DNA of 51,768 nt from a virus (IMGVR_UViG_3300033480_000002:1-51768), one strand, 5' to 3'. Shown: positions 18,023 to 51,768, counted from the stretch's first letter. A program made the numbers and translations. Notes: generated by a model from the letters alone, not told the origin.

Positions 18023-18095
18023 AGCGGGGTAGAGGAGTTCGGTGCCTTGGCGGCCCCATAAGCCGCAGACGCGGGTTCAAATCCCGCCCCCGCCA
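18023..18095 (+). tRNA. tRNA-Met(CAT)-like: tRNA-like gene, anticodon CAT (Met/Ile2-type), non-canonical
   Basis: Hand-folded cloverleaf. Acceptor AGCGGGG/CCCCGCC with an A1xC72 mismatch, D stem GAGG/CCTT, anticodon stem GCGGC/GCCGC, loop CCCATAA (C at position 33 instead of U), T arm GCGGG-TTCAAAT-CCCGC. 73 nt. Confidence 0.55.
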
Positions 18096-18131
18096 CGGCG
18101 GGGAGTCACTCCAAGTGACTCCCCGACCCAA

Positions 18132-18204
18132 TGGTCAGTAGCTCAATTGGTAGAGCGTCGGTCTCCAAAACCGAAGGTTTCAGGTTCAACTCCTGACTGA
18201 TCAG
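18132..18204 (+). tRNA. tRNA-Trp(CCA): tRNA-Trp (anticodon CCA)
   Basis: Hand-folded. Acceptor TGGTCAG/CTGATCA (one G-U), D arm GCTC-AATTGGTA-GAGC, anticodon arm TCGGT-CTCCAAA-ACCGA, variable AGGTT, T arm TCAGG-TTCAACT-CCTGA, discriminator G. 73 nt. Confidence 0.85.
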
Positions 18205-18324
18205 CCCTCCCTCCGATCGACCGGCCCGGAGGAGCGTAAAAGACCGGTAGCTAGAGCCGCTTTAGATTCCCCTGTCTACATAGCGAGGCTAGCGAATTCA
18301 CTTGAATTAGGGAGAGACGCCAGT

Positions 18325-26458: not shown

Positions 26459-26640
26459 TCGTCATCTCCTAGCTCTCGTGGCCGATAGGAACTGACCGGA
26501 CGTCGCTCCTCGGCAACAACCAGGAGTGACTCGATCCACCGAGCACAAGTGTGGCACAGGTGTACCGTCCTGGACTGCCCGGGAGCTTCTATGCGGAATT
26601 TGCAGATTGCCTTCCTTCGGGCGCATTTGTCACAGTTCAT
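26455..26640 (-). CDS. Small zinc-ribbon protein (61 aa)
   Basis: Trimmed to MNCDKCARRKAICKF...HLCHTCARW (CxxC...CxxC). Its ATG overlaps the integrase TGA (ATGA). Confidence 0.6.
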   Translation of the reverse strand: MNCDKCARRKAICKFRIEAPGQSRTVHLCHTCARWIESLLVVAEERRPVSSYRPRELGDDE

Positions 26641-27638
26641 CTCACTGCCGCCAATCTGACGACCGTGGGCTGCTCGGTCGTCCACATCTCCTGGCCGATG
26701 ACGCTCTCGCGGTCAGCCTCTTCACGATCGAATCCGAGGTAGTGCCAGGTCTCTTCAATATTCTTGTGGTGAAGCCACTTCATTATCACCTTATCGGCGA
26801 TATATGGGTCAAGGTCGTTCTTGATCAGGGTGTTCCTATATGCTAGCGCGCCGGATCGGCGCAGCAAGTGTTCACCAAGACCCTTGAGATCGGTTGTGAT
26901 GGTGGTATTGGAAAGCGCACGTTGGATGATCTCATGCACTTTCTGTACTGGTCTTGATGGATTCAATCGGTCCCGCCCGTGTTGACGAGCGGGAACGAGA
27001 TGCCATTCCGGATGCTCGATCATCATCTGACGGACCGAGTTGTATCCCATCTCTGACGCATACCAATCGAGATAGGAGACAAGCCCACGCTCCAATGTGG
27101 CGCTGACCGGCATCCAGTCCAGCAAGTTGGATTTCCACACGTGGACACGGATATGCGGACCCGGCCGGTCGGGATCTGAGCCCTCCCAACTGATGTCCCC
27201 CAAGGTAATGGTGGCCATTTCGGATGCCCTGAGGAATAGGGTCAGGCCGAGCAGGACAATCATCCGGTCCCGCTCGCCCGTTGCTCCGTCGAGTAGATGG
27301 CCGAACTGATCGGGGGCGAGGCGGAATAGGTCGACTGGATCGACCTTGTACATGGCCAGGTCACTAGTGGGGTTCTTGCGGGTGTACCCACGGGCATGCG
27401 TCCACCTGAAGAACATCCGGAGACCGGACACGTACGCATTGAGCGTGTTCGCCCCGTGAGTTTCACTGCGGTCTTCAAAGAACCGATCCATGTGCTCATG
27501 GGTAACCCGAGAAATCTCAATATCTCCCGTGACGGTCATGAGTTGACTAATCGTGCTGGCGTATCGCCGCAGCGTACTGGCGCTCTTGCGCCGGTTCAAG
27601 CTGGCGATGTACTTGTCCCTGGCTTCGGAGATCTTCAT
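26637..27638 (-). CDS. int: Tyrosine recombinase/integrase (XerC/D-like, SAM-like N-domain)
   Basis: Catalytic pattern: R in LFLRASEM, H-x-x-R in GEHLLRRSGA, H/Y in HHKNIEETWHYLG. N-terminal TLRRYASTISQL...LNAYVSGLRMFFRW core-binding domain. Start trimmed to MKISEARD (ATGA overlap with the upstream gene). Confidence 0.85.
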   Translation of the reverse strand: MKISEARDKYIASLNRRKSASTLRRYASTISQLMTVTGDIEISRVTHEHMDRFFEDRSETHGANTLNAYVSGLRMFFRWTHARGYTRKNPTSDLAMYKVDPVDLFRLAPDQFGHLLDGATGERDRMIVLLGLTLFLRASEMATITLGDISWEGSDPDRPGPHIRVHVWKSNLLDWMPVSATLERGLVSYLDWYASEMGYNSVRQMMIEHPEWHLVPARQHGRDRLNPSRPVQKVHEIIQRALSNTTITTDLKGLGEHLLRRSGALAYRNTLIKNDLDPYIADKVIMKWLHHKNIEETWHYLGFDREEADRESVIGQEMWTTEQPTVVRLAAVR

Positions 27639-28285
27639 GCGATCATCCCCGCGAGGGCGCGAGAGACGGTTTTCTGGGAGCATCCAACCTCAAGGGCTAG
27701 GCGTCCATGTGTCCACGAGGGATTGCGCGATTTCAGTGTCCGTATCACTGTGGACGTGTCCACCCCATTCCCTGTCCTACTTGACTGGACAGGGGTGGCA
27801 TTCTCGGTGTCTACCTGAGCGGCTTTCCGTGTCCGCCTCGGAGTGGACACCTTTTCTTTTGTCATGTCCACCTGGAATGTCTTCTCTGTCCGGTCCAATT
27901 CGGACAGGGAAATGCTGGCGATGACCACTAGGCCATCGACACACAATGGCATGATGTGACTAGAGGACGTCGATTCTCCGAAATGCAAGCAGACCGCCAG
28001 CATATGCTGGTAGCTGACCACTGCTGCAACTCCAGCGACGACGGCTGCGGCGACCAGCCGGACACCGGAGCGCCATGAGCGCTCCGAGGGGATGCGCTCG
28101 ATCACGAGAGAGCCGAGGGCCAGCGCTGCCGCTGGCCATGCCGCGATGCCCTGAGAGATCAACCGATTGGGCGACTCGATCAAGGAAGCGTGCAGCACGT
28201 TGGCTGCTAGGGAGGCAGCGAGGCCGAGCCCGAGCGCGCAGCGCGCGACCAGTCGACCCGCCGTGCAGGTATTGGGAGCTGTCAT
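27635..28285 (-). CDS. Multi-pass membrane protein (DUF2637-like) with C-terminal HTH
   Basis: Four hydrophobic segments plus SYQHMLAV...PLCVDGLVVIAS, which I recall as the DUF2637 signature. C-terminus WTHGRLALEVGCSQKTVSRAL is HTH-like. First gene of the leftward operon. Confidence 0.65.
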   Translation of the reverse strand: MTAPNTCTAGRLVARCALGLGLAASLAANVLHASLIESPNRLISQGIAAWPAAALALGSLVIERIPSERSWRSGVRLVAAAVVAGVAAVVSYQHMLAVCLHFGESTSSSHIMPLCVDGLVVIASISLSELDRTEKTFQVDMTKEKVSTPRRTRKAAQVDTENATPVQSSRTGNGVDTSTVIRTLKSRNPSWTHGRLALEVGCSQKTVSRALAGMIA

Positions 28286-32237: not shown

Positions 32238-32345
32238 ATGCTTGATGTTAAGGTAATTTCTGATCGCCATTGGGGATATGAGGTCACCTACGTCAATGGC
32301 GTTCCCATCAGTTTCGTGCGCACTGAAATTGGATGGTATGGATGA
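32238..32345 (+). CDS. Micro-ORF (35 aa), uncertain
   Basis: MLDVKVISDRHWGYEVTYVNGVPISFVRTEIGWYG. Its stop overlaps the ATG at 32342 (ATGA). No strong SD. Confidence 0.35.
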   Translation: MLDVKVISDRHWGYEVTYVNGVPISFVRTEIGWYG

Positions 32346-32974
32346 CATTCCCAAAGTTTCCGAAGATCCCCCGGTTTAACCGGGAGGTTGTTATCACTGA
32401 GAAGATAGACGGGACAAATGGCCTGATCTATATTTCCGACCCGTATGGTGGGAATACCCTACTCAGTAATCCGCCAGTGGTGATCGAATCTGATGGATTC
32501 CAAATTGCGGCAGGGAGTCACCGTCGGTGGATTTATCCAGCAATGGATAATCATGGTTTTGCTAAATGGGTTTTCGACAATGCTGATGAATTGGTGAAAT
32601 TGGGGCCCGGTCTCCATTATGGTGAATGGTGGGGTTCTGGGATTAATCGAGGCTACGGGTTCACTCGTAATGAACACTTCTTTTCATTGTTCAATGTTTC
32701 CCGCTGGAATGGCGAGACCCTCGGGGATATTGATGTCCCTAATCTAACCGCTGTTCCCATTCTCAGAAATGGGAGCGCAGCTTATCTGGAAAGCATGATT
32801 GAAGAGGAGCTAGATCACCTTAGAGCACATGGCTCTATCGCAGCTCCGGGCTTCATGCGCCCGGAGGGCATCGTGATCTACCACACTGCTGGCAACCATC
32901 TATACAAGGTCACCCTTGAGGGTGACGACCTACCCAAGTCGCTGTCTCAACAGCGACGGCTGGACGCTGCATAA
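32342..32974 (+). CDS. RNA ligase-family nucleotidyltransferase
   Basis: Motif I EKIDGTN (adenylated Lys), YGEWWG, EGIVIYH, LYKVTLEG. The size and motif order fit the small phage RNA-ligase family. Visibly more A+T-rich than its neighbours (by eye). Confidence 0.7.
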   Translation: MTFPKFPKIPRFNREVVITEKIDGTNGLIYISDPYGGNTLLSNPPVVIESDGFQIAAGSHRRWIYPAMDNHGFAKWVFDNADELVKLGPGLHYGEWWGSGINRGYGFTRNEHFFSLFNVSRWNGETLGDIDVPNLTAVPILRNGSAAYLESMIEEELDHLRAHGSIAAPGFMRPEGIVIYHTAGNHLYKVTLEGDDLPKSLSQQRRLDAA

Positions 32975-45792: not shown

Positions 45793-45818
45793 ACCTGGGG
45801 CGCCGGTGCCTGGGGCGC
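45793..45818. repeat. Tandem 11-mer cctggggcgcc x2 (4-nt spacer)
   Basis: Read directly. Each copy holds the GGCGCC palindrome. About 95-125 nt upstream of the start at 45699. Confidence 0.8.
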
Positions 45819-45955
45819 CGCGCTCGGCCGTCGCGGGGGTCAGCCTGGGTCATAGCCGCTCCCATCAGGTCGGATGTCCGGACCGTAACCGGACATCACA
45901 CCTGAGGGCAAGCCAGACGCGAAAGGATTTCGGTTAAAATTTGATAACACCCGTT

Positions 45956-46009
45956 CTGCTCATCACGGACACATCCGGACTCGTGGCCCGGATGCGCCCG
46001 AAACGGTCA
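45956..46009 (-). repeat. Box1-hairpin-box2 intergenic element, copy G
   Basis: The minus strand reads TGACCGTTTCGG-GCG-CATCCGG-gccacgag-TCCGGATG-TGTCCGTGATGAGCAG. The TGA is the stop of gene 46007..46159. Confidence 0.7.
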
Positions 46010-46159
46010 GTGGTAGATGGGAGTCTGCGCGTACTTCGGCTGGCTCGTCGACCAGAACAGGAGGATGATGAATCCTCCGAGAACCAGGGAATACACGAAC
46101 AGCCGAAAATCCTTGTCCTTGGCGTACACCCAGATTGTATCGAAGAGCCTTCTCAGCAT
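46007..46159 (-). CDS. Small membrane protein (50 aa)
   Basis: Trimmed to MLRRLFDTIWVYAKDKDFRLFVYSLVLGGFIILLFW... (one TM helix). Its ATG overlaps the upstream stop (ATGCTGA). SD CGGAGG. Confidence 0.6.
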   Translation of the reverse strand: MLRRLFDTIWVYAKDKDFRLFVYSLVLGGFIILLFWSTSQPKYAQTPIYH

Positions 46160-46479
46160 TTTGCCTCCGGTGGTTGGACCGGGCAGGGTTGCCCCTGCCG
46201 GATTGCGCTCAGTGGACCGATGAGTTTCGTCATCGTCCACCCGTAGAGGGCCGCTACCAACGCGGCGTCTGTGGTAGTGCGGCAACCGAGGCGTCTGCAC
46301 GCCCCGGGGTACGCCGTCCACGCGAACTTCCACAATGCGGGCAGATAGCGGTACTCATCGCAGAATTTCTCGATGTCTCTCTGTGTCTCATTGAGGGGAT
46401 CCCTCAATGGAGGAACCCGCGTCAGATCGACGAACCGGTCTCCCGGGTGGATGTGATCGATCAGTCGCCATTCGGACAT
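46153..46479 (-). CDS. Hypothetical protein (108 aa)
   Basis: Trimmed to MSEWRLIDH after TAGGAGAGAC. The track's N-terminal extension overlaps the upstream gene. Confidence 0.65.
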   Translation of the reverse strand: MSEWRLIDHIHPGDRFVDLTRVPPLRDPLNETQRDIEKFCDEYRYLPALWKFAWTAYPGACRRLGCRTTTDAALVAALYGWTMTKLIGPLSAIRQGQPCPVQPPEAKC

Positions 46480-46486
46480 GTCTCTC

Positions 46487-46663
46487 CTATGCGGCAATAG
46501 GCATGGACAGGGCGGACTCGTAGGCAGCCAAGAACACCCCCCACTCGTCCTCGTCGTACCGGGCGCGCTCGGCAGGGAGGTCGAGGGCATCGATGTATCC
46601 GCGCCGAACAAGATTACCGAGCGTACCACCCTCGGCGCTGGCAGTTGTCAGATTGTCAACCAT
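46487..46663 (-). CDS. Hypothetical small protein (58 aa)
   Basis: Trimmed to MVDNLTTASAEGG after GGAAAAGGAA. Confidence 0.55.
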   Translation of the reverse strand: MVDNLTTASAEGGTLGNLVRRGYIDALDLPAERARYDEDEWGVFLAAYESALSMPIAA

Positions 46664-46700
46664 TTCCTTTTCCTCATTTCGGACATTTCCGGGTAATCCC

Positions 46701-46739
46701 AAAAAAGAGCACCATCCCCGGACCTTCGGGATGGTGCTC
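46701..46739 (-). terminator. Intrinsic terminator inside the leftward gene train
   Basis: The minus strand reads GAGCACCATCCC-gaaggtccg-GGGATGGTGCTC followed by TTTTTTGGG. Confidence 0.8.
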
Positions 46740-46759
46740 TCTCTTGGGACGGCTCGGTC

Positions 46760-46888
46760 TTATTGCCACATCCTTTCCAGTGAGTGGATCCATCGCCGCA
46801 ATAGCCACGCGAGCAGCCATTTCCGGCATTCCTTCGCTGCCATCTCCGCATTGCGGAGGTCGGTCAGCAGCTTGGCTGCCATGACCAT
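46760..46888 (-). CDS. Micro-ORF (42 aa), uncertain
   Basis: MVMAAKLLTDLRNAEMAAKECRKWLLAWLLRRWIHSLERMWQ, an amphipathic helix. Lies between the stop at 46900 and the terminator. Weak SD. Confidence 0.25.
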   Translation of the reverse strand: MVMAAKLLTDLRNAEMAAKECRKWLLAWLLRRWIHSLERMWQ

Positions 46889-46899
46889 CCGAGGGGTGA

Positions 46900-47328
46900 T
46901 CACTCTGACCTCCGGAGGCCCAACGACACCATCAGGGCGTCCCTGAGTGCCGCCAGGGCGTGCAGCTCCCGCAGGGGCATGTCAGTCTGGGTGCCGATGA
47001 TCAGGGCAAGCTGATGGGCGAGCAGGCGACGCATTCCGGAATCGAAACCATCGAGCGCCCGGTGATCGAAGCCCAGCCCCTCGCCCACAACTCGCTCCCC
47101 GGCCGCCTGGATCAGCGGCCGAGACGGGTCGATCTGGAATGCGTACCGGCCCGCCATGTCAGCAAGATCGCGTAGCGACCTCACATCCATGAACACCTCG
47201 TGTGCCCGATCGCTGTCGTGGTCGCACGTGAAACCCAGCGTCCCGACGTATCTGTGCGTCGCTGGGTCAAGCGACCTCCCCACCTTGCGGAAAGTCGCTC
47301 TGTGCGTTTCTCTCGGTCTACCACCCAT
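46900..47328 (-). CDS. Hypothetical protein (142 aa)
   Basis: ATG follows GGAAGGGGAATTGA. No motif recognised. Confidence 0.65.
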   Translation of the reverse strand: MGGRPRETHRATFRKVGRSLDPATHRYVGTLGFTCDHDSDRAHEVFMDVRSLRDLADMAGRYAFQIDPSRPLIQAAGERVVGEGLGFDHRALDGFDSGMRRLLAHQLALIIGTQTDMPLRELHALAALRDALMVSLGLRRSE

Positions 47329-47405
47329 TCAATTCCCCTTCCTGAGAAACCCAACAGGGCTGGTATCCTAGCAGCTACGGTAGGTTACCAGCCCCGCAAG
47401 GACGC

Positions 47406-47801
47406 TCAGGGTGCGCTCAGCTCGGAGCGCAGGAGGAATCGACGAGTGGCTCGCTCCCCGGCGGTCCCCTCGTCTGTGTCCGTGTCGAAGTAATTCCCGT
47501 GGTGCCACTCCTTCGGATTCAGCCACGTAGCGACAACGAACTTTCCGCCCATGCGGGCAAGAATTGTCGTTACTCCATTCTCACGCCGATATGCACCGGT
47601 GATCGTGTATCCGTTGATCATGGCCCCCACTCGGGGGAGCTGGGGCTCCGCAATCTCCGAGATGTACCACTCAGCGGACTCACCGCAATGGCAGGTGTAA
47701 CGACGATCATCAACCTCCCGGATGGTGACCCGTATCCCTTTCATCTCGCTCAGGGCTTGCTCTAGGCACGGCTCCATCTCGCACACTGCGTACGCCTTCA
47801 T
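47406..47801 (-). CDS. Hypothetical protein with CxC/CxC pairs (131 aa)
   Basis: AVCEMEPC...YTCHCGES. Starts 1 nt after the upstream stop. Followed by hairpin GGGCTGGTA...TACCAGCCC (47344-47395). Confidence 0.65.
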   Translation of the reverse strand: MKAYAVCEMEPCLEQALSEMKGIRVTIREVDDRRYTCHCGESAEWYISEIAEPQLPRVGAMINGYTITGAYRRENGVTTILARMGGKFVVATWLNPKEWHHGNYFDTDTDEGTAGERATRRFLLRSELSAP

Positions 47802-47802
47802 A

Positions 47803-48042
47803 TCACCCTCTCCTGTCTGGACTTGTCAGGTATTCCAAGGCCACCCAACAGGAATACCAGGTTGTCTTATAGAATGGATCGACTGAGGTCCCCACTAGAG
47901 CGTCACGATCTTCCGCGGGAAGGGCATTGAAAAACGCCTGCCCGCGACGCTGACGGTAACGGATGACATTGTGGCACATGGAGCGGAATTGGTCCGGCTC
48001 CATTAGGGCCATAACTTCATTTTTAAAATCCTCGTCGATCAT
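47803..48042 (-). CDS. Hypothetical protein (79 aa)
   Basis: Start set at the ATG after GGAGAAAGAG (MIDEDFKNEV). The track ATG at 48066 lies inside box2 of repeat copy F. Confidence 0.6.
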   Translation of the reverse strand: MIDEDFKNEVMALMEPDQFRSMCHNVIRYRQRRGQAFFNALPAEDRDALVGTSVDPFYKTTWYSCWVALEYLTSPDRRG

Positions 48043-48105
48043 CTCTTTCTCCTGTCTGGCCTCCATCGCACACCCCGGGCGAGCCGGGATGCACGAAAGC
48101 GGTCA
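48043..48105 (-). repeat. Box1-hairpin-box2 intergenic element, copy F
   Basis: The minus strand reads TGACCGCTTTCG-TGCATCCCGG-ctcgc-CCGGGGTGTGC-GATGGAGGCCAG-ACAGGAGAAAGAG. Confidence 0.7.
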
Positions 48106-48525
48106 GCGGTACCGGATTTCAGTAAGGCACCCGCCGAACGAGCATTCGCAGTCGGCCGGGTGCCACTTGCACGGTTCCGGCCGGTAACGGCACTTGTAAG
48201 AGTTGCACAGCTCGTGCACCTCGAAATGGCTGGTTCCGAATGTGGTCCCCAGAGCGGGACCGTAGAACCGGAACCAGTCGTCATCGTAGAACTTACCCTC
48301 CGGTGTCGGGTCACCCGGCTCCAGCCGGGTGGGCACAAGGTAGCGCCTCGGGCCGAACACCCGGAGGACCTTGAACACCTTCGGGTCGAGGATCAGCTCA
48401 AGATCTGCCCAGCATACCGGCTCCGTGCTGCGATACGGAGCCTCTCCGAGCCCCATCGGTGTCTCTACTGTTACGCCATGTGTTGCGGGCTTAGTGCAGA
48501 AAACACACGTGTAACCCTCCAACAT
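48103..48525 (-). CDS. Cys-rich protein (140 aa)
   Basis: CVFC...C...CNSYKCRYRPEPCKWHPADCECSFGGC. Start trimmed to MLEGYTC after AAAGGGGA. Confidence 0.65.
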   Translation of the reverse strand: MLEGYTCVFCTKPATHGVTVETPMGLGEAPYRSTEPVCWADLELILDPKVFKVLRVFGPRRYLVPTRLEPGDPTPEGKFYDDDWFRFYGPALGTTFGTSHFEVHELCNSYKCRYRPEPCKWHPADCECSFGGCLTEIRYR

Positions 48526-48586
48526 TGTCATTCCCCTTTCTGGCAGCCACGGAAGCACCCCCGCAGGGGTGCAACCGAAGCGGTCA
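48526..48586 (-). repeat. Box1-hairpin-box2 intergenic element, copy E
   Basis: The minus strand reads TGACCGCTTCGG-TT-GCACCCC-tgc-GGGGGTGC-TTCCGTGGCTGCCAG-AAAGGGGA. Confidence 0.7.
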
Positions 48587-49075
48587 GTAAGTGATGTCGA
48601 TCCGACCGACCCTCTTGGGCTCCAGGGAGCCCGTGAGCTGTAGCCAGCGGTCCTCCAGGGCATCCCGCTTATCGATCAGCGGGTGGAGCTTCTCAGCCGC
48701 CTCCCGGACGGCTTCCGTTGCCCTGTCAAGGTCGTTGTTCACCTTGGTAAGGGTGGCCTGCCCCTCAATTGCGTCGGTCCACAGTAGATCGGCCTTACGG
48801 ATGATCATTTCCAGGATCTTGGCCTGGTGCGTGGGAGGGGTCGGCTTGTCCCAGTCCCGACGAATCGAGTAATACGCCTCGCGGTTGAGCACGATACCCT
48901 CGTCCGTGCGGTTCAGGGAAAGCGAGACCGTGTTTTCCTTGCCCCGGTAGGCGAGCCGCTCGTGATGGGTGCTCACGTGCGCCCACCCGTCACCGTTGAA
49001 TGCGAATACGAGAACGCCAGTGAAACCGTCCTCATCAATGGTGACCTTCTCATCCGGTGATTCCATGTATGTCAT
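48584..49075 (-). CDS. Hypothetical protein (163 aa)
   Basis: Trimmed to MTYMESPDEK after GGAGGAGAGAA. The C-terminal half is coiled-coil-like. Confidence 0.65.
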   Translation of the reverse strand: MTYMESPDEKVTIDEDGFTGVLVFAFNGDGWAHVSTHHERLAYRGKENTVSLSLNRTDEGIVLNREAYYSIRRDWDKPTPPTHQAKILEMIIRKADLLWTDAIEGQATLTKVNNDLDRATEAVREAAEKLHPLIDKRDALEDRWLQLTGSLEPKRVGRIDITY

Positions 49076-49146
49076 TTCTCTCCTCCAGTTGGCACTGATC
49101 AGCCATAGCCACCCGCACCGAAGGTGTGAATGACTAAAGCGGGTCA
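49076..49146 (-). repeat. Box1-hairpin-box2 intergenic element, copy D
   Basis: The minus strand reads TGACCCGCTTTAGTCATTCA-CACC-ttcg-GGTG-CGGG-TGGCTATGGCTGATCAG-TGCCAACTGGAGGAGAGAA. Confidence 0.75.
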
Positions 49147-49374
49147 GTACTCGCCCAGCTCCCGGGCGATGTCCTGATCGGCAATACCTGCCCATACCGC
49201 CATCGCTGCGGTATGGGTGATCCCCGGAGGGTCGTCCGGATATCTGGTCTCGATGTACTCCCGTAGCTCCCACGTGTGCGACATGTGCCGCACGTCGTCG
49301 GGCGGAACCTCGGCGATTATTGCATCGACTCTGCGCATTTCATCGCCGGTCATCACTCGGTATTCCATGGCCAT
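49144..49374 (-). CDS. Hypothetical protein (76 aa)
   Basis: ATG follows GAGGGAATGGCC. No motif recognised. Confidence 0.6.
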   Translation of the reverse strand: MAMEYRVMTGDEMRRVDAIIAEVPPDDVRHMSHTWELREYIETRYPDDPPGITHTAAMAVWAGIADQDIARELGEY

Positions 49375-49380
49375 TCCCTC

Positions 49381-49746
49381 TCAGCTTTCGTCCGGGATGT
49401 ACGCGACGGCCCAGCCCACATCTTCAGTCACGCATCCCGGCTCGCCATCCTCGGCGGCAACGTCGCCGTACACCACAACCGCGACATACAGGCCAGGAGT
49501 CGCCCGGATGTCACGCTCAAGGTTCCCGCCGATGTACTCCGATGGGTGCATGATCGGACTGTGAGCCTGGCCGTACTGCCCGGTGTATCCGTACATCAAT
49601 TGCCACTCACGCCCGTTCACGGGGCGTGCGTCGATGTGGCCATCCTCTGTGACCTCCGGAGCCCAGACGTCCGGCTCATCGGTCACGGAGCCGTCCGCGT
49701 GGACCCTGACGACGTGGTCGAAATCCATGATCTTGTTGAGTTCCAT
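49381..49746 (-). CDS. Hypothetical protein (121 aa)
   Basis: ATG follows GGATGAGAGGATGAGATC. Conserved-looking block GYTGQYGQAHSPIMHPSEYIGG. Confidence 0.65.
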   Translation of the reverse strand: MELNKIMDFDHVVRVHADGSVTDEPDVWAPEVTEDGHIDARPVNGREWQLMYGYTGQYGQAHSPIMHPSEYIGGNLERDIRATPGLYVAVVVYGDVAAEDGEPGCVTEDVGWAVAYIPDES

Positions 49747-49829
49747 GATCTCATCCTCTCATCCTGGCCGTCTGGCAGCCATGGCGGTCCACCCTGGCCC
49801 CTCCCTAGGGTGGACCGCTAAAGCGGTCA
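49747..49829 (-). repeat. Box1-hairpin-box2 intergenic element, copy C
   Basis: The minus strand reads TGACCGCTTTAG-CGGTCCACCCT-agggaggggcc-AGGGTGGACCG-CCATGGCTGCCAG-ACGGCCAGGATGAGAGG. Confidence 0.75.
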
Positions 49830-50102
49830 GACGTCGATGACCTCGACGTGAAGGATCAGCTTGTTACCCTTGTTGCCCGTGAATTCCCACCGTCGGTAGT
49901 CCCCCACGGCGAGCGTGTACTGCCCTCCCTGCCGGTACACTGCCGGTTCACCCGGTGTCCATTCCCGATCGTCGTATTCCCTCTGAACTCGGATGACGCC
50001 CCGTCCCGCCTGGAAAGCGGAATTGATAGCGAACCGGTTCATATCGCACAGTGCCTTGCCATCGGGCGTACTGACAACCACCCGGATCTTCGGTCGCTTC
50101 AT
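49827..50102 (-). CDS. Hypothetical protein (91 aa)
   Basis: ATG follows TAGGAGGAGAGA. No motif recognised. Confidence 0.65.
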   Translation of the reverse strand: MKRPKIRVVVSTPDGKALCDMNRFAINSAFQAGRGVIRVQREYDDREWTPGEPAVYRQGGQYTLAVGDYRRWEFTGNKGNKLILHVEVIDV

Positions 50103-50171
50103 TCTCTCCTCCTAGCCTGAGTGGCCATAGCCAAGCACTCCGGAGAGTGCATGACTAAAGTGACTCAGTCA
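50103..50171 (-). repeat. Box1-hairpin-box2 intergenic element, copy B
   Basis: The minus strand reads TGACTGAGTCACTTTAGTCAT-GCACTC-tccg-GAGTGC-TTGGCTATGGCCACTCAG-GCTAGGAGGAGAGA. Confidence 0.75.
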
Positions 50172-50471
50172 CTCGGTAAACACTGTAAACGCGTAGCGGT
50201 CGCCGTGATGGTAATCCCCGCATCCCTCACACGCGCGGGTCGAGAACGTGTCCGTTTCACAGTCACAGTCCTGCTCTCCGCTAGTGGGAGAGTCGGGGCG
50301 ATTCGGGCAGTCCTCCCGGTGCTCGCCTCCCATGGCGATGGTGTACGGCTCGCCTTCCCACTCTGCCCACGGTTCGGGCAGGTCGGCAGGTCTGTCAGGG
50401 TCGCACTCGCCATTAGCATGCACAAGCATGCAGTCCTGACACACCCATATCTGGCAGAATATCTCAGCCAT
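50169..50471 (-). CDS. Cys-rich protein (100 aa)
   Basis: FCQIWVCQDCMLVHANGEC...DCDCETD...CEGCGDYHH. SD GGAGAGAGGA. Confidence 0.7.
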   Translation of the reverse strand: MAEIFCQIWVCQDCMLVHANGECDPDRPADLPEPWAEWEGEPYTIAMGGEHREDCPNRPDSPTSGEQDCDCETDTFSTRACEGCGDYHHGDRYAFTVFTE

Positions 50472-50549
50472 TGTCTCATCCTCTCTCCATTGGGCTGATC
50501 GCCCATACCCGCCGTCCGGGCTAGGCCCGGAAGCGAGTAAAGCCGGTCA
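50472..50549 (-). repeat. Box1-hairpin-box2 intergenic element, copy A
   Basis: The minus strand reads TGACCGGCTTTACTCGCT-TCCGGGC-cta-GCCCGGA-CGGCGGGTATGGGCGATCAG-CCCAATGGAGAGAGG. Confidence 0.7.
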
Positions 50550-50777
50550 GGCGATGATCGCTGCGATTGTTTCCAGAGCTGTACGGCGCGCGTCACGCGG
50601 GTAGACACCCGGTGTCGCGCCGAGCGTGCACGGTGGGCCGGAGTGATACCTTAGGGTGAAATGATCATCACCCACTCCCCATCGGAACTGGAATGCATTC
50701 CGTTCCGGCCGCTCGACTAGGAAGCTAAAGCTCCCGTCGTCCTCGGTCGTTTCTGTGATCTTGAGCGTTTCCATCAC
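50547..50777 (-). CDS. Hypothetical protein (76 aa)
   Basis: ATGA overlap with the upstream gene. Confidence 0.6.
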   Translation of the reverse strand: MMETLKITETTEDDGSFSFLVERPERNAFQFRWGVGDDHFTLRYHSGPPCTLGATPGVYPRDARRTALETIAAIIA

Positions 50778-51133
50778 CGGTCGCTCCGCATCTTGAGTGC
50801 GTCCAGCGGGACCAGCTCAAGGGCTTGACTGTCGTCGAAACGAACGGTCACCCACCCGCCGAACGGCTTGACCACTGTCGTTCCCATACGGGGAAACTCG
50901 GCAGTGTCCGTGATCCGATGCACGCGGCGACGCTGATTCCTGTATTTCTCCCATGAGTGCGGGAGAGAATCGCAGGAAACGGCGTGGCCGTTGTCGACCG
51001 CCGAACGTGCACCTTCGTACAGTTCGGCGAACACGGTTGCATCCTGCATTGACATTGTCCCAACAATGCAGCCGGGACGGGCGTCAATAGCACCCTGCGC
51101 ATAGAATAGCGCTCTTTCATACCATCCGGACAT
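50774..51133 (-). CDS. Hypothetical protein (119 aa), first gene of the leftward arm
   Basis: Second ATG chosen (MSGWYERAL), 7 nt after GGGAGGA. The track start is 51139. Confidence 0.65.
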   Translation of the reverse strand: MSGWYERALFYAQGAIDARPGCIVGTMSMQDATVFAELYEGARSAVDNGHAVSCDSLPHSWEKYRNQRRRVHRITDTAEFPRMGTTVVKPFGGWVTVRFDDSQALELVPLDALKMRSDR

Positions 51134-51146
51134 TGTCATCCTCCCA

Positions 51147-51165
51147 TTGTGTGAGCTTCACACAA
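51147..51165. promoter_or_regulatory. Palindrome TTGTGTGA-gct-TCACACAA, just upstream of the first leftward gene
   Basis: 8-bp arms, 8-26 nt 5' of the start region on the coding strand. Could be an operator or an RBS-proximal hairpin. Confidence 0.5.
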
Positions 51166-51166
51166 G

Positions 51167-51238
51167 CCCTCCCCTATTCGCTCTCTCTACCGGACGGGCT
51201 TATACCGTAGGCGTAGAGGATCCCCGAATAGGGGAGGG
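51167..51238. repeat. 14-bp perfect inverted repeat CCCTCCCCTATTCG ... CGAATAGGGGAGGG (44-nt loop)
   Basis: Read directly (51167-51180 and 51225-51238). Lies in the leader of the leftward arm. Confidence 0.8.
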
Positions 51239-51641
51239 ATTCTATGAATTCACCCTCTAAAAACGCCTAAAGGCACAAGCCAATGTCTGGCTTGCGCCTA
51301 AAGGTGGAATTAGAGAATGACTTTCGCCGATGCCCATGACGCGCGGAATGATCACGCGCGTCCCTAACTGCCCCTCAGATACGGCCTAAGTGGCGCATAG
51401 ATCATGTTCCATGATTCACATCATTGATCATGATTCCGCTGACTCGGTTCCGCATCCTGGCACGCCCTAGTTACACCGATCATGACTGACAGTCTCAGAT
51501 CTTCCCTAGGCGCTCAACCGCTCGATTCGAGCGGGAGCGTGCCCCTAGCGCCTCGCCATGCCCGGTGCACCCCTAGCGGGTGACACTCGGCCTCTGTGCT
51601 GTTCTTAAGCTGCCGGACCGATCAGACGGTCCGCCCGGTGT

Positions 51642-51768
51642 CCCCCGGGTGGGTAGTGCTGGTATTGAGGCAAGCCTCTCTCTAAGAACATGCATGTGTC
51701 AAGGACCTAAGTCCCGATGGTGCTGTTCTGTGGCCTAGCTCACATCCTGTGCTGTCTGTATGTGGGCA
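51642..51768. repeat. Second copy of the 127-nt terminal duplication
   Basis: Identical to 1-127. Confidence 0.95.

Follow-up and report, generated by a model that had tools for sequence, protein, structure and literature searches.

The leftward arm of a 51,768-nt phage sequence (the whole of which is here called the window) contains minus-strand spacers that repeat one layout between unrelated genes, and the question is what this layout encodes. A preliminary description divided each of seven spacers into three parts: a TGA stop fused to a conserved box1, a variable hairpin, and a box2. As possible roles, it named processing, stability, binding of a regulator, and mobility. The seven spacers, the variants of both boxes, and the self-complementary cores had all been placed correctly, but the parts are not separate; box1 and box2 are the two strands of one lower stem, and each element is thus a single long imperfect hairpin of ~55 nt and ~22 bp that takes in the stop codon in or beside its base (CUGA...UCAG). 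The helix begins at the upstream stop codon or just before it and ends 13-25 nt ahead of the next start, the unpaired remainder being only a polypurine Shine-Dalgarno (SD) tract.

All copies are on the minus strand; bit scores refer to the covariance model described below. S1 (56 nt, 50495..50550; 55.4 bits) follows gene g2, whose stop (50549-50547) is held in a CUGA paired with UCAG; it contains a U·U mismatch and has a polypurine SD, and the start of g3 is 23 nt downstream of the hairpin. S2 (52 nt, 50117..50168; 50.9 bits) follows g3 and has a UCCG loop. Here, the fusion of stop and box1, which stands for the other six copies, breaks down: the conserved CUGAGU, paired with ACUCAG, lies 1 nt downstream of the real stop (50171-50169). 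In S3 (59 nt, 49772..49830; 54.5 bits), the stop of g4 (49829-49827) is within the base helix, and S4 (53 nt, 49095..49147; 53.4 bits), after g6 (stop 49146-49144), has the CUGA/UCAG base. S5 (48 nt, 48540..48587; 55.8 bits) follows g7 (stop 48586-48584) and has a UGCG loop, S6 (51 nt, 48056..48106; 53.5 bits) follows g8 (stop 48105-48103), and S7 (55 nt, 45956..46010; 53.0 bits), after g15 (stop 46009-46007), is the final copy, with ~250 nt without genes coming next. In addition to these seven standard copies, an eighth had gone uncounted: S8, a 70-nt variant hairpin (47410-47341) after g10 (stop 47408-47406), pairs CCUGAG with CUCAGG around the stop and shares with S1-S7 the C-G / U·G / U·U core (CUUG...UUGG). 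Its boxes differ from those of S1-S7 and resemble the copies of a related contig, L146, and it was missed by covariance models R1 and R2. The window thus holds eight copies, all in the leftward arm.

A covariance model built from S1-S7, as had been suggested, was run on both strands of the whole 51.8-kb window with filters off. S1-S7 scored 50.9-55.8 bits against their own model, and the next-best matches were the antisense strands of the same copies (8.9-17.5 bits), with unrelated noise at 12.5 bits or less; because of this gap, the elements were judged to be a discrete set and not a chance motif. Model matches elsewhere in the window are noise, in keeping with the earlier view that the element is confined to this arm. 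An isolated CCGCTTTAG on the plus strand, rightly suspected of being due to chance, has no model match, although its position is 18257-18265 and not 18259-18267. The hairpin family, first reported as unrecognised, is not listed in Rfam: Rfam 15 found only two tRNAs in the whole window at gathering thresholds, and only two chance hits far below threshold in 45800-50700 with E values up to 5. The element is not unique to this genome, and copies are present in related phage contigs, whose hosts are actinobacteria. A set of 29 copies from 10 phage contigs was aligned; the family is present in at least nine contigs besides that of the window, and is conserved across phages with terminases that are merely 50-73% identical. 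Other related phages have their own genome-specific box families.

That the stems are selected, as first proposed from their compensatory sequences, is supported by covariation. Among S1-S7, 91.5% of cells are paired and 11 pairs show double changes, a result matched by 0 of 500 shuffles. For the 29 copies, the alignment was fitted to the structure of the covariance model and its pair counts are thus inflated, but 95.1% of cells are paired, double changes occur in 16 of 17 pairs, and the covariation score is 0.72 versus 0.20 in shuffles; slid controls are only 34-46% paired.

The preliminary description left the choice between RNA and single-stranded DNA (ssDNA), and it is the former that stands. 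All 29 model matches are on the coding strand of the arm, the U·G pair is nearly invariant (27/29 copies), and G·U accounts for 106 of 491 stem cells. Of 106 hairpins from the phage group, 86 fold more stably as the sense strand, with a mean advantage of 5.1 kcal/mol (p = 5e-12), and UNCG plus GNRA loops outnumber their complements 13 to 3. Within the window alone, the two strands differ only modestly in energy: six of the eight copies are more stable as sense, and S3 folds better as antisense. Taken together, the near-invariant U·G pair, the abundance of G·U, and the better folding of the sense strand across the phage group identify the element as sense-strand RNA rather than ssDNA. Each copy is a cis-acting hairpin of sense-strand RNA, in a leftward ORFan operon that is presumably polycistronic and probably expressed early in infection, "early" being judged from position only.

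The hairpins sit in the narrow gaps of a same-strand gene array, and an SD and start follow each of them. Among the phage-group hairpins, 58 of 106 begin within -3 to 0 of the stop, versus 20.5 expected, a number reached in 0 of 20,000 simulations, and the tail ahead of the start codon is 73% purine. A canonical intrinsic terminator was rejected as an explanation both by the missing U-tract, which would be 7-9 nt directly 3' of the hairpin, and by the location inside operons, not at the ends of units. As first noted, no U-run follows any of the eight window copies, and the true terminator in the same arm, a hairpin plus U7 at 46701..46739 on the minus strand, is not a member of the family and provides the contrast: operon ends there are closed by canonical U-tract terminators. 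The phage-group hairpins agree, as TTTT or at least five T in the 10-nt tail was found in none of the 106. No spacer has a promoter-like site; one such site was found in the 6.3 kb scanned, within a gene, versus 1.9 expected.

The geometry of the hairpin is narrowly kept. Over the 29 copies, total pairing has a median of 22 bp (interquartile range 21-23), and the variable upper stem is 13-15 bp (median 14 bp). A mismatch 9-10 nt from each hairpin end is never Watson-Crick (U·U in 26 copies, C·A in two, and C·U in one); it sits 13-15 bp below the loop, and U·G and C-G adjoin the U·U position. We tentatively favour, as the most likely reading, an intercistronic processing/stability signal for a double-strand-specific RNase that is also a cassette boundary. 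The candidate cutter would be a double-strand-specific endoribonuclease, most likely host RNase III, and cleavage near the U·U position would split a long transcript into gene-sized mRNAs. If the 3' strand alone were cut, the upstream mRNA would keep its stop codon and a protective 3' hairpin, and the downstream mRNA would open with a short leader, rich in purines, on which ribosomes load. Two helical turns are what chiefly makes an RNA reactive to RNase III, and internal loops limit cleavage to one strand, leaving protective 3' hairpins (PMC1540722). The median of 22 bp over 29 copies corresponds to the helix of an RNase III-type substrate (~two turns, about 20-22 bp). RNase III requires little sequence, however, and the conserved boxes and invariant U·U could therefore equally be a signature of some other RNA-binding protein of host or phage.

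In T7 and SP82, early RNase III sites serve to cut and stabilise the transcript, which is the role proposed here. We folded the early intergenic spacers of T7 for comparison, taking them to be RNase III sites after Dunn and Studier (1983), as these are not annotated in the record used. The hairpins resemble the T7 (R0.3, R0.5, R1, R1.1, and R1.3) and T3 sites as repeated intercistronic hairpins of a podovirus operon that host RNA polymerase transcribes early in T7 and probably also here. In both cases, a conserved 5' box pairs with a conserved 3' box below a variable top, followed by an SD and AUG, and in the T7 fold, the UGA stop of gene 0.4 is inside the lower stem of R0.5. Both also have about two helical turns with internal non-canonical positions and no U-tract (PMC1540722). 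There is no sequence similarity to the T7 sites, which have larger asymmetric internal loops in place of the 1x1 U·U and small mismatches seen here; further, the host here is probably actinobacterial, with G+C-rich RNA, and cleavage is proven for T7 but only predicted for these hairpins. A second likeness is to the SP82 sites and a stabiliser, which are strongly conserved ~50-nt hairpins between early genes of a Gram-positive phage, followed by a purine-rich, SD-like tract; their sequences and host phylum are unrelated. The stabiliser likened to these hairpins is reportedly that of Hue et al. in 1995. The SP82 RNase III sites are cited in PMC4838370.

The cassette-boundary part of the favoured reading is a secondary consequence. 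The genes flanking the elements are ORFans with almost no homologs in the relatives sharing the hairpin; the same short boxes thus recur between unrelated ORFans, and for this reason we consider that the elements double as cassette boundaries. That they are also places of gene gain, loss, and swap is partly borne out by the junctions in two relatives, L172 and L174, neither of them a close relative of the window: four of five indels or replacements between these two are bounded by hairpin spacers, and one extra gene has duplicated elements on both sides. Selection alone would already place breakpoints at gene boundaries, and the elements may thus be passive in this role.

The foremost alternative, which we regard as unlikely, is that the hairpins are passive structural punctuation without cleavage, folding away the untranslated gap between cistrons. 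They would then block 3'-to-5' exonucleases, deny Rho an unstructured loading site, and perhaps also bring the stop beside the next SD for re-initiation. The idea is consistent with the extent of the hairpin, which takes up the spacer between the stop codon and a point shortly ahead of the SD, with the bimodal spacer lengths, which are either overlapping and translationally coupled (-4, -1, and -8) or 60-100 nt with a hairpin, and with the presence of stable UNCG and GNRA loops and no U-tract after any hairpin. A barrier or insulator, however, has no need of 22 bp kept to +/-1 bp, of a never-Watson-Crick position at a fixed distance, or of boxes conserved between phages so divergent in their terminases.

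Decidedly unlikely in our judgement is an operator role, in which an RNA-binding protein of phage or host, sequence-specific and distinct from RNase III, would bind the lower stem and U·U beside the ribosome-binding site and so set the translation or lifetime of the downstream ORFan. What is conserved is the sequence of the lower stem together with the U·G / U·U core, not the top; the element is immediately upstream of the SD, and the genome-specific box families of other related phages would also fit. On the other hand, no RNA-binding protein was recognised among the proteins of the window, and the arm proteins are not common to the phages that share the element, so that a partner encoded by the phage would need to come from another part of the genome. 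A comparable role has been suspected for the ESAS/SAS motifs in actinophages of clusters K and EF. Immediately ahead of conserved ribosome-binding sites, ESAS form imperfect inverted repeats (PMC3203893). Like ESAS/SAS and other actinobacteriophage intergenic repeats (clusters K, EF, O, EG, and EC, and the cluster A stoperators), the elements are phage-specific motifs in short gaps of a non-structural arm, and like ESAS, they are conserved beside unrelated genes (PMC3203893, PMC7302621). ESAS arms, though, are 17 bp, conserved over their full length, and tied to a 13-bp SAS at the ribosome-binding site, with stop-codon anchoring unreported, whereas the helix here is 22 bp and conserved in the lower stem alone. 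ESAS/SAS was rejected as an identity: the 13-bp SAS consensus (GGGATAGGAGCCC-like), with up to two mismatches, adjoins no element and occurs in the window once per strand, isolated, at 27171 (+) and 507 (-).

An element acting at the DNA level, i.e., a small mobile repeat or a linker for recombination by which ORFan cassettes are shuffled, with the RNA fold incidental, was judged very unlikely. Candidates would be a PeSL (promoter-early stem-loop) of the T4-like phages, a MITE, a REP element, or an integron attC site. In its favour are the unrelated genes that flank the element in the phages sharing it and the junctions of L172 and L174 described above, where hairpin spacers bound indels and replacements and one inserted gene lies between two copies.

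PeSLs behave in just this way (PMC2839356), and the elements of L172/L174 likewise flank ORFans and coincide with indel and replacement junctions. Both are conserved between genes, begin at the upstream stop, form stem-loops with G·T pairs, and are concentrated among ORFans in hyperplastic regions (PMC2839356, PMC4122927). PeSLs also bear a strong sigma-70 promoter and act as terminators, whereas the hairpins have neither promoter nor terminator tail; with no sigma-70-type early promoter in any spacer, the PeSL cassette was rejected. Like REP/BIME elements and attC sites, the hairpins are imperfect palindromes directly after the stops of same-strand genes, with conserved ends and a variable centre, but unlike REP/BIME, they lack GTAG/CTAC ends and have no adjacent RAYT gene. 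The attC core sites (RYYYAAC ... GTTRRRY) are absent from S1-S7, with S8 having a chance half-match, and it is the bottom strand that folds in attC, whereas the antisense is the weaker folder across this phage group. No integron integrase is adjacent; the sole integrase gene in the window (26637-27683) is 20 kb away. A MITE or recent mobile repeat was likewise rejected: the upper arms are 33% identical between copies, or about random, and are still complementary, and flanking direct repeats are 0-1 nt, i.e., target-site duplications are absent. Since the upper stems differ in every copy but remain complementary, the copies must be old and not recently transposed. The G·U-rich stems, the sense-strand bias, and the UNCG/GNRA loops further argue for selection on RNA.

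A more ambitious form of the cassette idea, which we would call a long shot, is that the portable module of stop codon, 22-bp hairpin, and ribosome-binding site is a dedicated phage ORFan-cassette system in which a specific factor other than RNase III reads the U·G / U·U core. If so, that factor would tie the initiation of each ORFan to termination of the one before and would also direct cassette gain, loss, and exchange between co-infecting phages; the module would be an RNA-marked counterpart, in actinobacterial podoviruses, of integron attC sites or PeSLs.

For Streptomyces phage phiC31, Ingham et al. reportedly described terminators without U-tails in the early region in 1995. Terminators or attenuators of that kind, leaky and factor-independent, which would grade expression along the operon, hardly seem credible here: GC-rich stable hairpins directly 3' of stop codons and the actinobacterial hosts of the related phages, a phylum for which U-less terminators have been proposed, would suit them, but the same arm uses U-tract terminators at its operon ends, the lack of a U-tract extends to all 106 hairpins, terminator stems do not look like a 22-bp helix with conserved mismatches, and purified mycobacterial RNA polymerase needs the U-tract, failing to terminate at hairpins without it even with NusA and NusG (PMC3993855).

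Two further systems were considered and rejected. For a lambda-type nut site, boxA CGCTCTTTA with up to two mismatches is scattered over the window (58 and 60 occurrences per strand); such a site would have boxA followed by a short boxB hairpin with a GNRA-like pentaloop in one or two copies per operon, whereas the element here is a 22-bp hairpin of variable loop, present eight times. For a bacterial SECIS or programmed UGA read-through, the frame after the UGA is open and in frame with the next gene only in S1 and S6; S2, S3, S4, and S8 have a further stop, and S5 is out of frame. Across the phage group, the stop can itself be paired, UGA with UCA 22 times and UAG with CUA nine times, and relatives use both UAG and UAA at the stop position.

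The preliminary description recognized seven minus-strand spacers in the leftward arm (45956 to 50550), each read as a TGA stop, a conserved box1, a variable hairpin, and a conserved box2. All seven were found in place, and their box variants and self-complementary cores are as reported; the observation is genuine and its description was good. The spacers also form a discrete set: when the whole window was searched on both strands with filters off, R1, the one of two covariance models of the family that was built from the seven copies, scored them at 50.9–55.8 bits, the runners-up being the copies' own antisense strands (8.9–17.5 bits) and noise (at most 12.5 bits). A lone plus-strand CCGCTTTAG, suspected of being a chance occurrence, had no model match and is judged to be just that, but it lies at 18257–18265. 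What did not survive is the division into separate parts because, by single-sequence folding and RNAalifold, box1 pairs with box2, and the entire layout is one imperfect hairpin. In the window copies, the UGA stop and the C that precedes it pair with (U)CAG at the 3′ end; above this base there is a small internal loop, then a core of C-G, U·G, and U·U, topped by a stem of 13–15 bp that differs in sequence in every copy while keeping its complementarity. In the copy S2, the true stop comes first and the conserved CUGA 1 nt later; the motif thus belongs to the element and is not merely the stop codon. Over the seven copies, 91.5% of the aligned cells are paired and both partners change in 11 of 17 pairs, a result reached by none of 500 shuffles; slid controls were 36–46% paired. 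Sliding-window folding of the complete window yielded hundreds of sites at −22 kcal/mol in this G+C-rich genome and was uninformative. An eighth stop-anchored hairpin (S8; 47341–47410, minus strand) follows gene g10; it shares the C-G / U·G / U·U (CUU/UGG) core of the others but not their boxes, resembles copies in the related contig L146, and was missed by both the preliminary description and the two covariance models.

No close match to the window was detected among GenBank phages, megablast of the arm was likewise without a match, and a protein search of viral contigs with the arm gene g7 found nothing; after these direct searches, relatives were reached via the terminase. A DNA pattern (TGACCGCTTT N15-45 ATGGC) gave 120 single unrelated matches in viral contigs and was too unspecific, and the loci that it supplied (L001–L120) were discarded. 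Together, the two covariance models matched 29 copies in 10 contigs, all on the coding strand of the leftward arm; the terminases of these contigs are 50–73% identical to that of the window, and one contig, of 48.9 kb, is from a Kineococcus isolate. In the 29-copy alignment, 95.1% of the cells are paired, 16 of 17 pairs show double changes, and the covariation score is 0.72 versus 0.20 for shuffles, with slid controls about 34–46% paired; this alignment was fitted to the model, which favours structure, and 10 of the 29 copies were not used in model building. The compensatory stems proposed earlier are thus borne out, covariation exceeding that of shuffles in both alignments. The geometry is tight: medians are 22 bp for total pairing (interquartile range 21–23) and 14 bp for the upper stem, and the length is 55 nt (53–58). 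A mismatch 9–10 nt from both ends is never Watson-Crick, being U·U in 26 copies, C·A in two, and C·U in one. In S1, S3, and S4 (50495–50520, 49772–49795, and 49080–49100, minus strand), box2 can alternatively pair just downstream, forming a small 3′ hairpin that competes with the lowest helix in the minimum-energy fold; this alternative might act as a switch once a ribosome covers the 5′ arm, or might be chance. The preliminary description knew of no family to which the element belonged; Rfam indeed contains no match, and the accessible papers on cultured cluster BF relatives mention neither this family nor the stop-anchored hairpins. The elements are best seen as a new family of intercistronic RNA hairpins under tight constraint, of a kind known by function from T7 and SP82 and by genomic behaviour from the PeSL and ESAS elements.

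Several features point to RNA rather than DNA, and to the sense strand. U·G occupies one pair position in 27 of the 29 copies. Summed over the per-pair table for these copies, G·U accounts for 106 of the 491 stem cells and non-standard combinations for only 24; every G·U would be an A·C mismatch on the opposite strand. A group survey covered all spacers of 45–135 nt in the leftward arms of 24 loci, using a simple custom gene caller, and 106 of the 160 spacers contain an unbranched hairpin of at least 12 bp (median 22 bp). Of these 106 hairpins, 86 fold more stably on the sense strand, the mean difference being 5.1 kcal/mol (p = 5e-12), and UNCG and GNRA tetraloops number 13, versus three of their reverse complements. 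In the window alone the energy bias is weaker, the sense strand being more stable in six of eight copies.

Spacer lengths in the arms surveyed are bimodal: genes either overlap (−1, −4, or −8) or are separated by 60–100 nt. The hairpin begins at −3 to 0 from the stop codon in 58 of the 106 group hairpins, compared with 20.5 expected from random placement; none of 20000 simulations reached 58, and the pattern is present in 21 of 24 loci. Stop codon and partner covary: UGA is paired with UCA 22 times and UAG with CUA nine times. In plain minimum-energy folds, stop-codon pairing is weak (33% versus 23% in shuffles), and the signal becomes clear only after the analysis of hairpin position. About 17 nt, 73% of them purine, are left between the hairpin and the start codon. 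Stop-anchored hairpins of the same type occur in FlowerPower, a cultured Streptomyces phage, where a conserved GGGGAGAGA ribosome-binding site comes after them. In one copy of the element in the closest relative (L123, 3981–4027, minus strand), the called start of the next gene is an AUG inside box2 (GGCUAUGG), and positions 69–71 of the family alignment are AUG, GUG, or UUG in most copies. Genes g2 and g3 share one reading frame (50169–50777, minus strand) with only the UGA of S1 between them, and S6 (48042–48105, minus strand) is open and in frame with the next gene. Read-through of UGA, if true, would produce fused proteins; however, because only two of seven copies are involved, these open frames are probably due to chance.

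The best-supported reading is that the hairpins are putative processing and stability signals for a double-strand-specific endoribonuclease, for which the prime candidate would be host RNase III; we infer that the arm would be transcribed as one early unit and then cleaved. RNase III substrates typically consist of two helical turns, and internal loops limit cutting to one strand, leaving a protective 3′ hairpin (PMC1540722). SP82 of Bacillus subtilis, through its citation in PMC4838370, offers a second precedent besides T7. When folded, the T7 early intergenic spacers show a 5′ box (ACUCAAGGU), a variable top, and a 3′ box (GGCCUUUAUGAUU), followed by a Shine-Dalgarno sequence and AUG, the same architecture of conserved boxes and variable top as in the window; in the T7 0.4/0.5 spacer, the gene 0.4 UGA stop is inside the lower stem. 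These spacers, which are not annotated as such in the record used, are the established RNase III sites R0.3 to R1.3 (Dunn and Studier 1983).

Other identities fit less well. The earlier opinion that the hairpins are not classical terminators is upheld, as a U-tract follows none of the 106 group hairpins; canonical terminators close units in the same arm, and where the U-tract is missing, mycobacterial RNA polymerase fails to terminate even in the presence of NusA and NusG (PMC3993855). Readings involving a phage-encoded RNA polymerase or hairpin promoters were dropped: no RNA polymerase was detected, a 1510-amino-acid protein matched nothing in Pfam or PDB, and folding is poorer on the template strand. 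A scan of the spacers detected no sigma-70-like promoter, and box1 and box2 have the wrong spacing to be one. A likeness of box2 to the 16S rRNA 3′ end is true of S1 and S4 only, and SECIS/read-through, attC, MITE, nut, and SAS elements each fail in a defining feature.

The hairpins are conserved where the genes are not. When the 29 arm proteins were compared with more than 80 related loci, convincing homologs were found for g3 and g5 only, together with one weak match (25% identity) for h21; the relative with the 73% identical terminase has no arm-protein homolog, yet it carries four element copies. The g3 product (50169–50471, minus strand) is a Cys-rich protein of 100 amino acids assigned to phrog_3034, a group without assigned function; its homologs in L146 (52%), L170 (38%), and L133 (37%) are followed by hairpins of another box family. 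The loci L172 and L174 (~85% nucleotide identity) differ by five indels or replacements, four of them bounded by hairpin spacers, and one extra gene is flanked on both sides by a copy of the same element. Such boundary behaviour is described for the PeSL cassettes found in T4-type phages (PMC2839356, PMC4122927). Such breakpoints would partly be expected from selection against breaks inside genes alone, and the hairpins may have an active role in recombination. After the T4 PeSLs, this is a second, independent case of regulatory punctuation that falls on the seams of phage mosaicism.

The elements define a structured RNA family new to Rfam. Because the broader stop-anchored class is present in cultured Streptomyces cluster BF podoviruses, and the family itself in contig JBFBND010000032 of the isolate Kineococcus sp. 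NPDC059986, both can be tested at the bench, and the tight geometry (22 bp and a fixed non-canonical pair) makes the hairpin a clean candidate substrate for determining what actinobacterial RNase III, or another reader of double-stranded RNA, recognizes. For annotating the early arms of these phages, which are rich in ORFans, they are also practical markers of true stop and start positions and of the limits of cassettes.

The window, from an uncultured phage, is a complete circular assembly for which two samples gave identical contigs. Nucleotides 1–127 are identical to 51642–51768, either because the ends of a circular contig overlap in the assembly or because the genome has terminal repeats; the true length is thus ~51,641 bp. 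The large terminase is 44% identical to those of the Streptomyces cluster BF podoviruses (Beephvirinae), and related terminases occur in contigs of Dermatophilaceae, Terrabacter, Kineococcus, Actinocorallia, Herbidospora, and Streptomyces; judging from these sequences, the host is very probably an actinobacterium. The leftward arm, made up of small genes, begins at ~51.1 kb, reaches 38 kb, and is divergent to the rightward structural genes; arm genes 1–15 had no informative Pfam or PHROG match. A tyrosine integrase with a SAM-like N-terminal domain (phrog_1, 8.8e-25) is encoded at 26637–27683, minus strand. Cultured cluster BF relatives are described as virulent, and some relatives look like prophages because they are embedded in large actinobacterial contigs. 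Among the replication genes is an RNA ligase (32333–32974, plus strand; PF09414, presumably the Rnl2-type family; phrog_548), and linking it to the many double-stranded RNA hairpins is pure speculation. Two tRNA genes (18023–18204, plus strand) lie upstream of the capsid genes; cluster BF relatives have 15–21 (PMC9753666). Between the leftward arm and the rightward packaging genes is a gene-free stretch of ~1.9 kb (51140–51768 plus 1–1130), of which the part scanned, within 51100–51768, has no sigma-70 consensus promoter. It is dense in repeats and palindromes, with a possible origin, terminal-repeat, or early-promoter function, and includes a perfect 16-nt inverted repeat (682–697/760–775), a palindrome (846–877), TG-rich repeats (166–227), ATCATG repeats (51401–51436), and many TAGG motifs.
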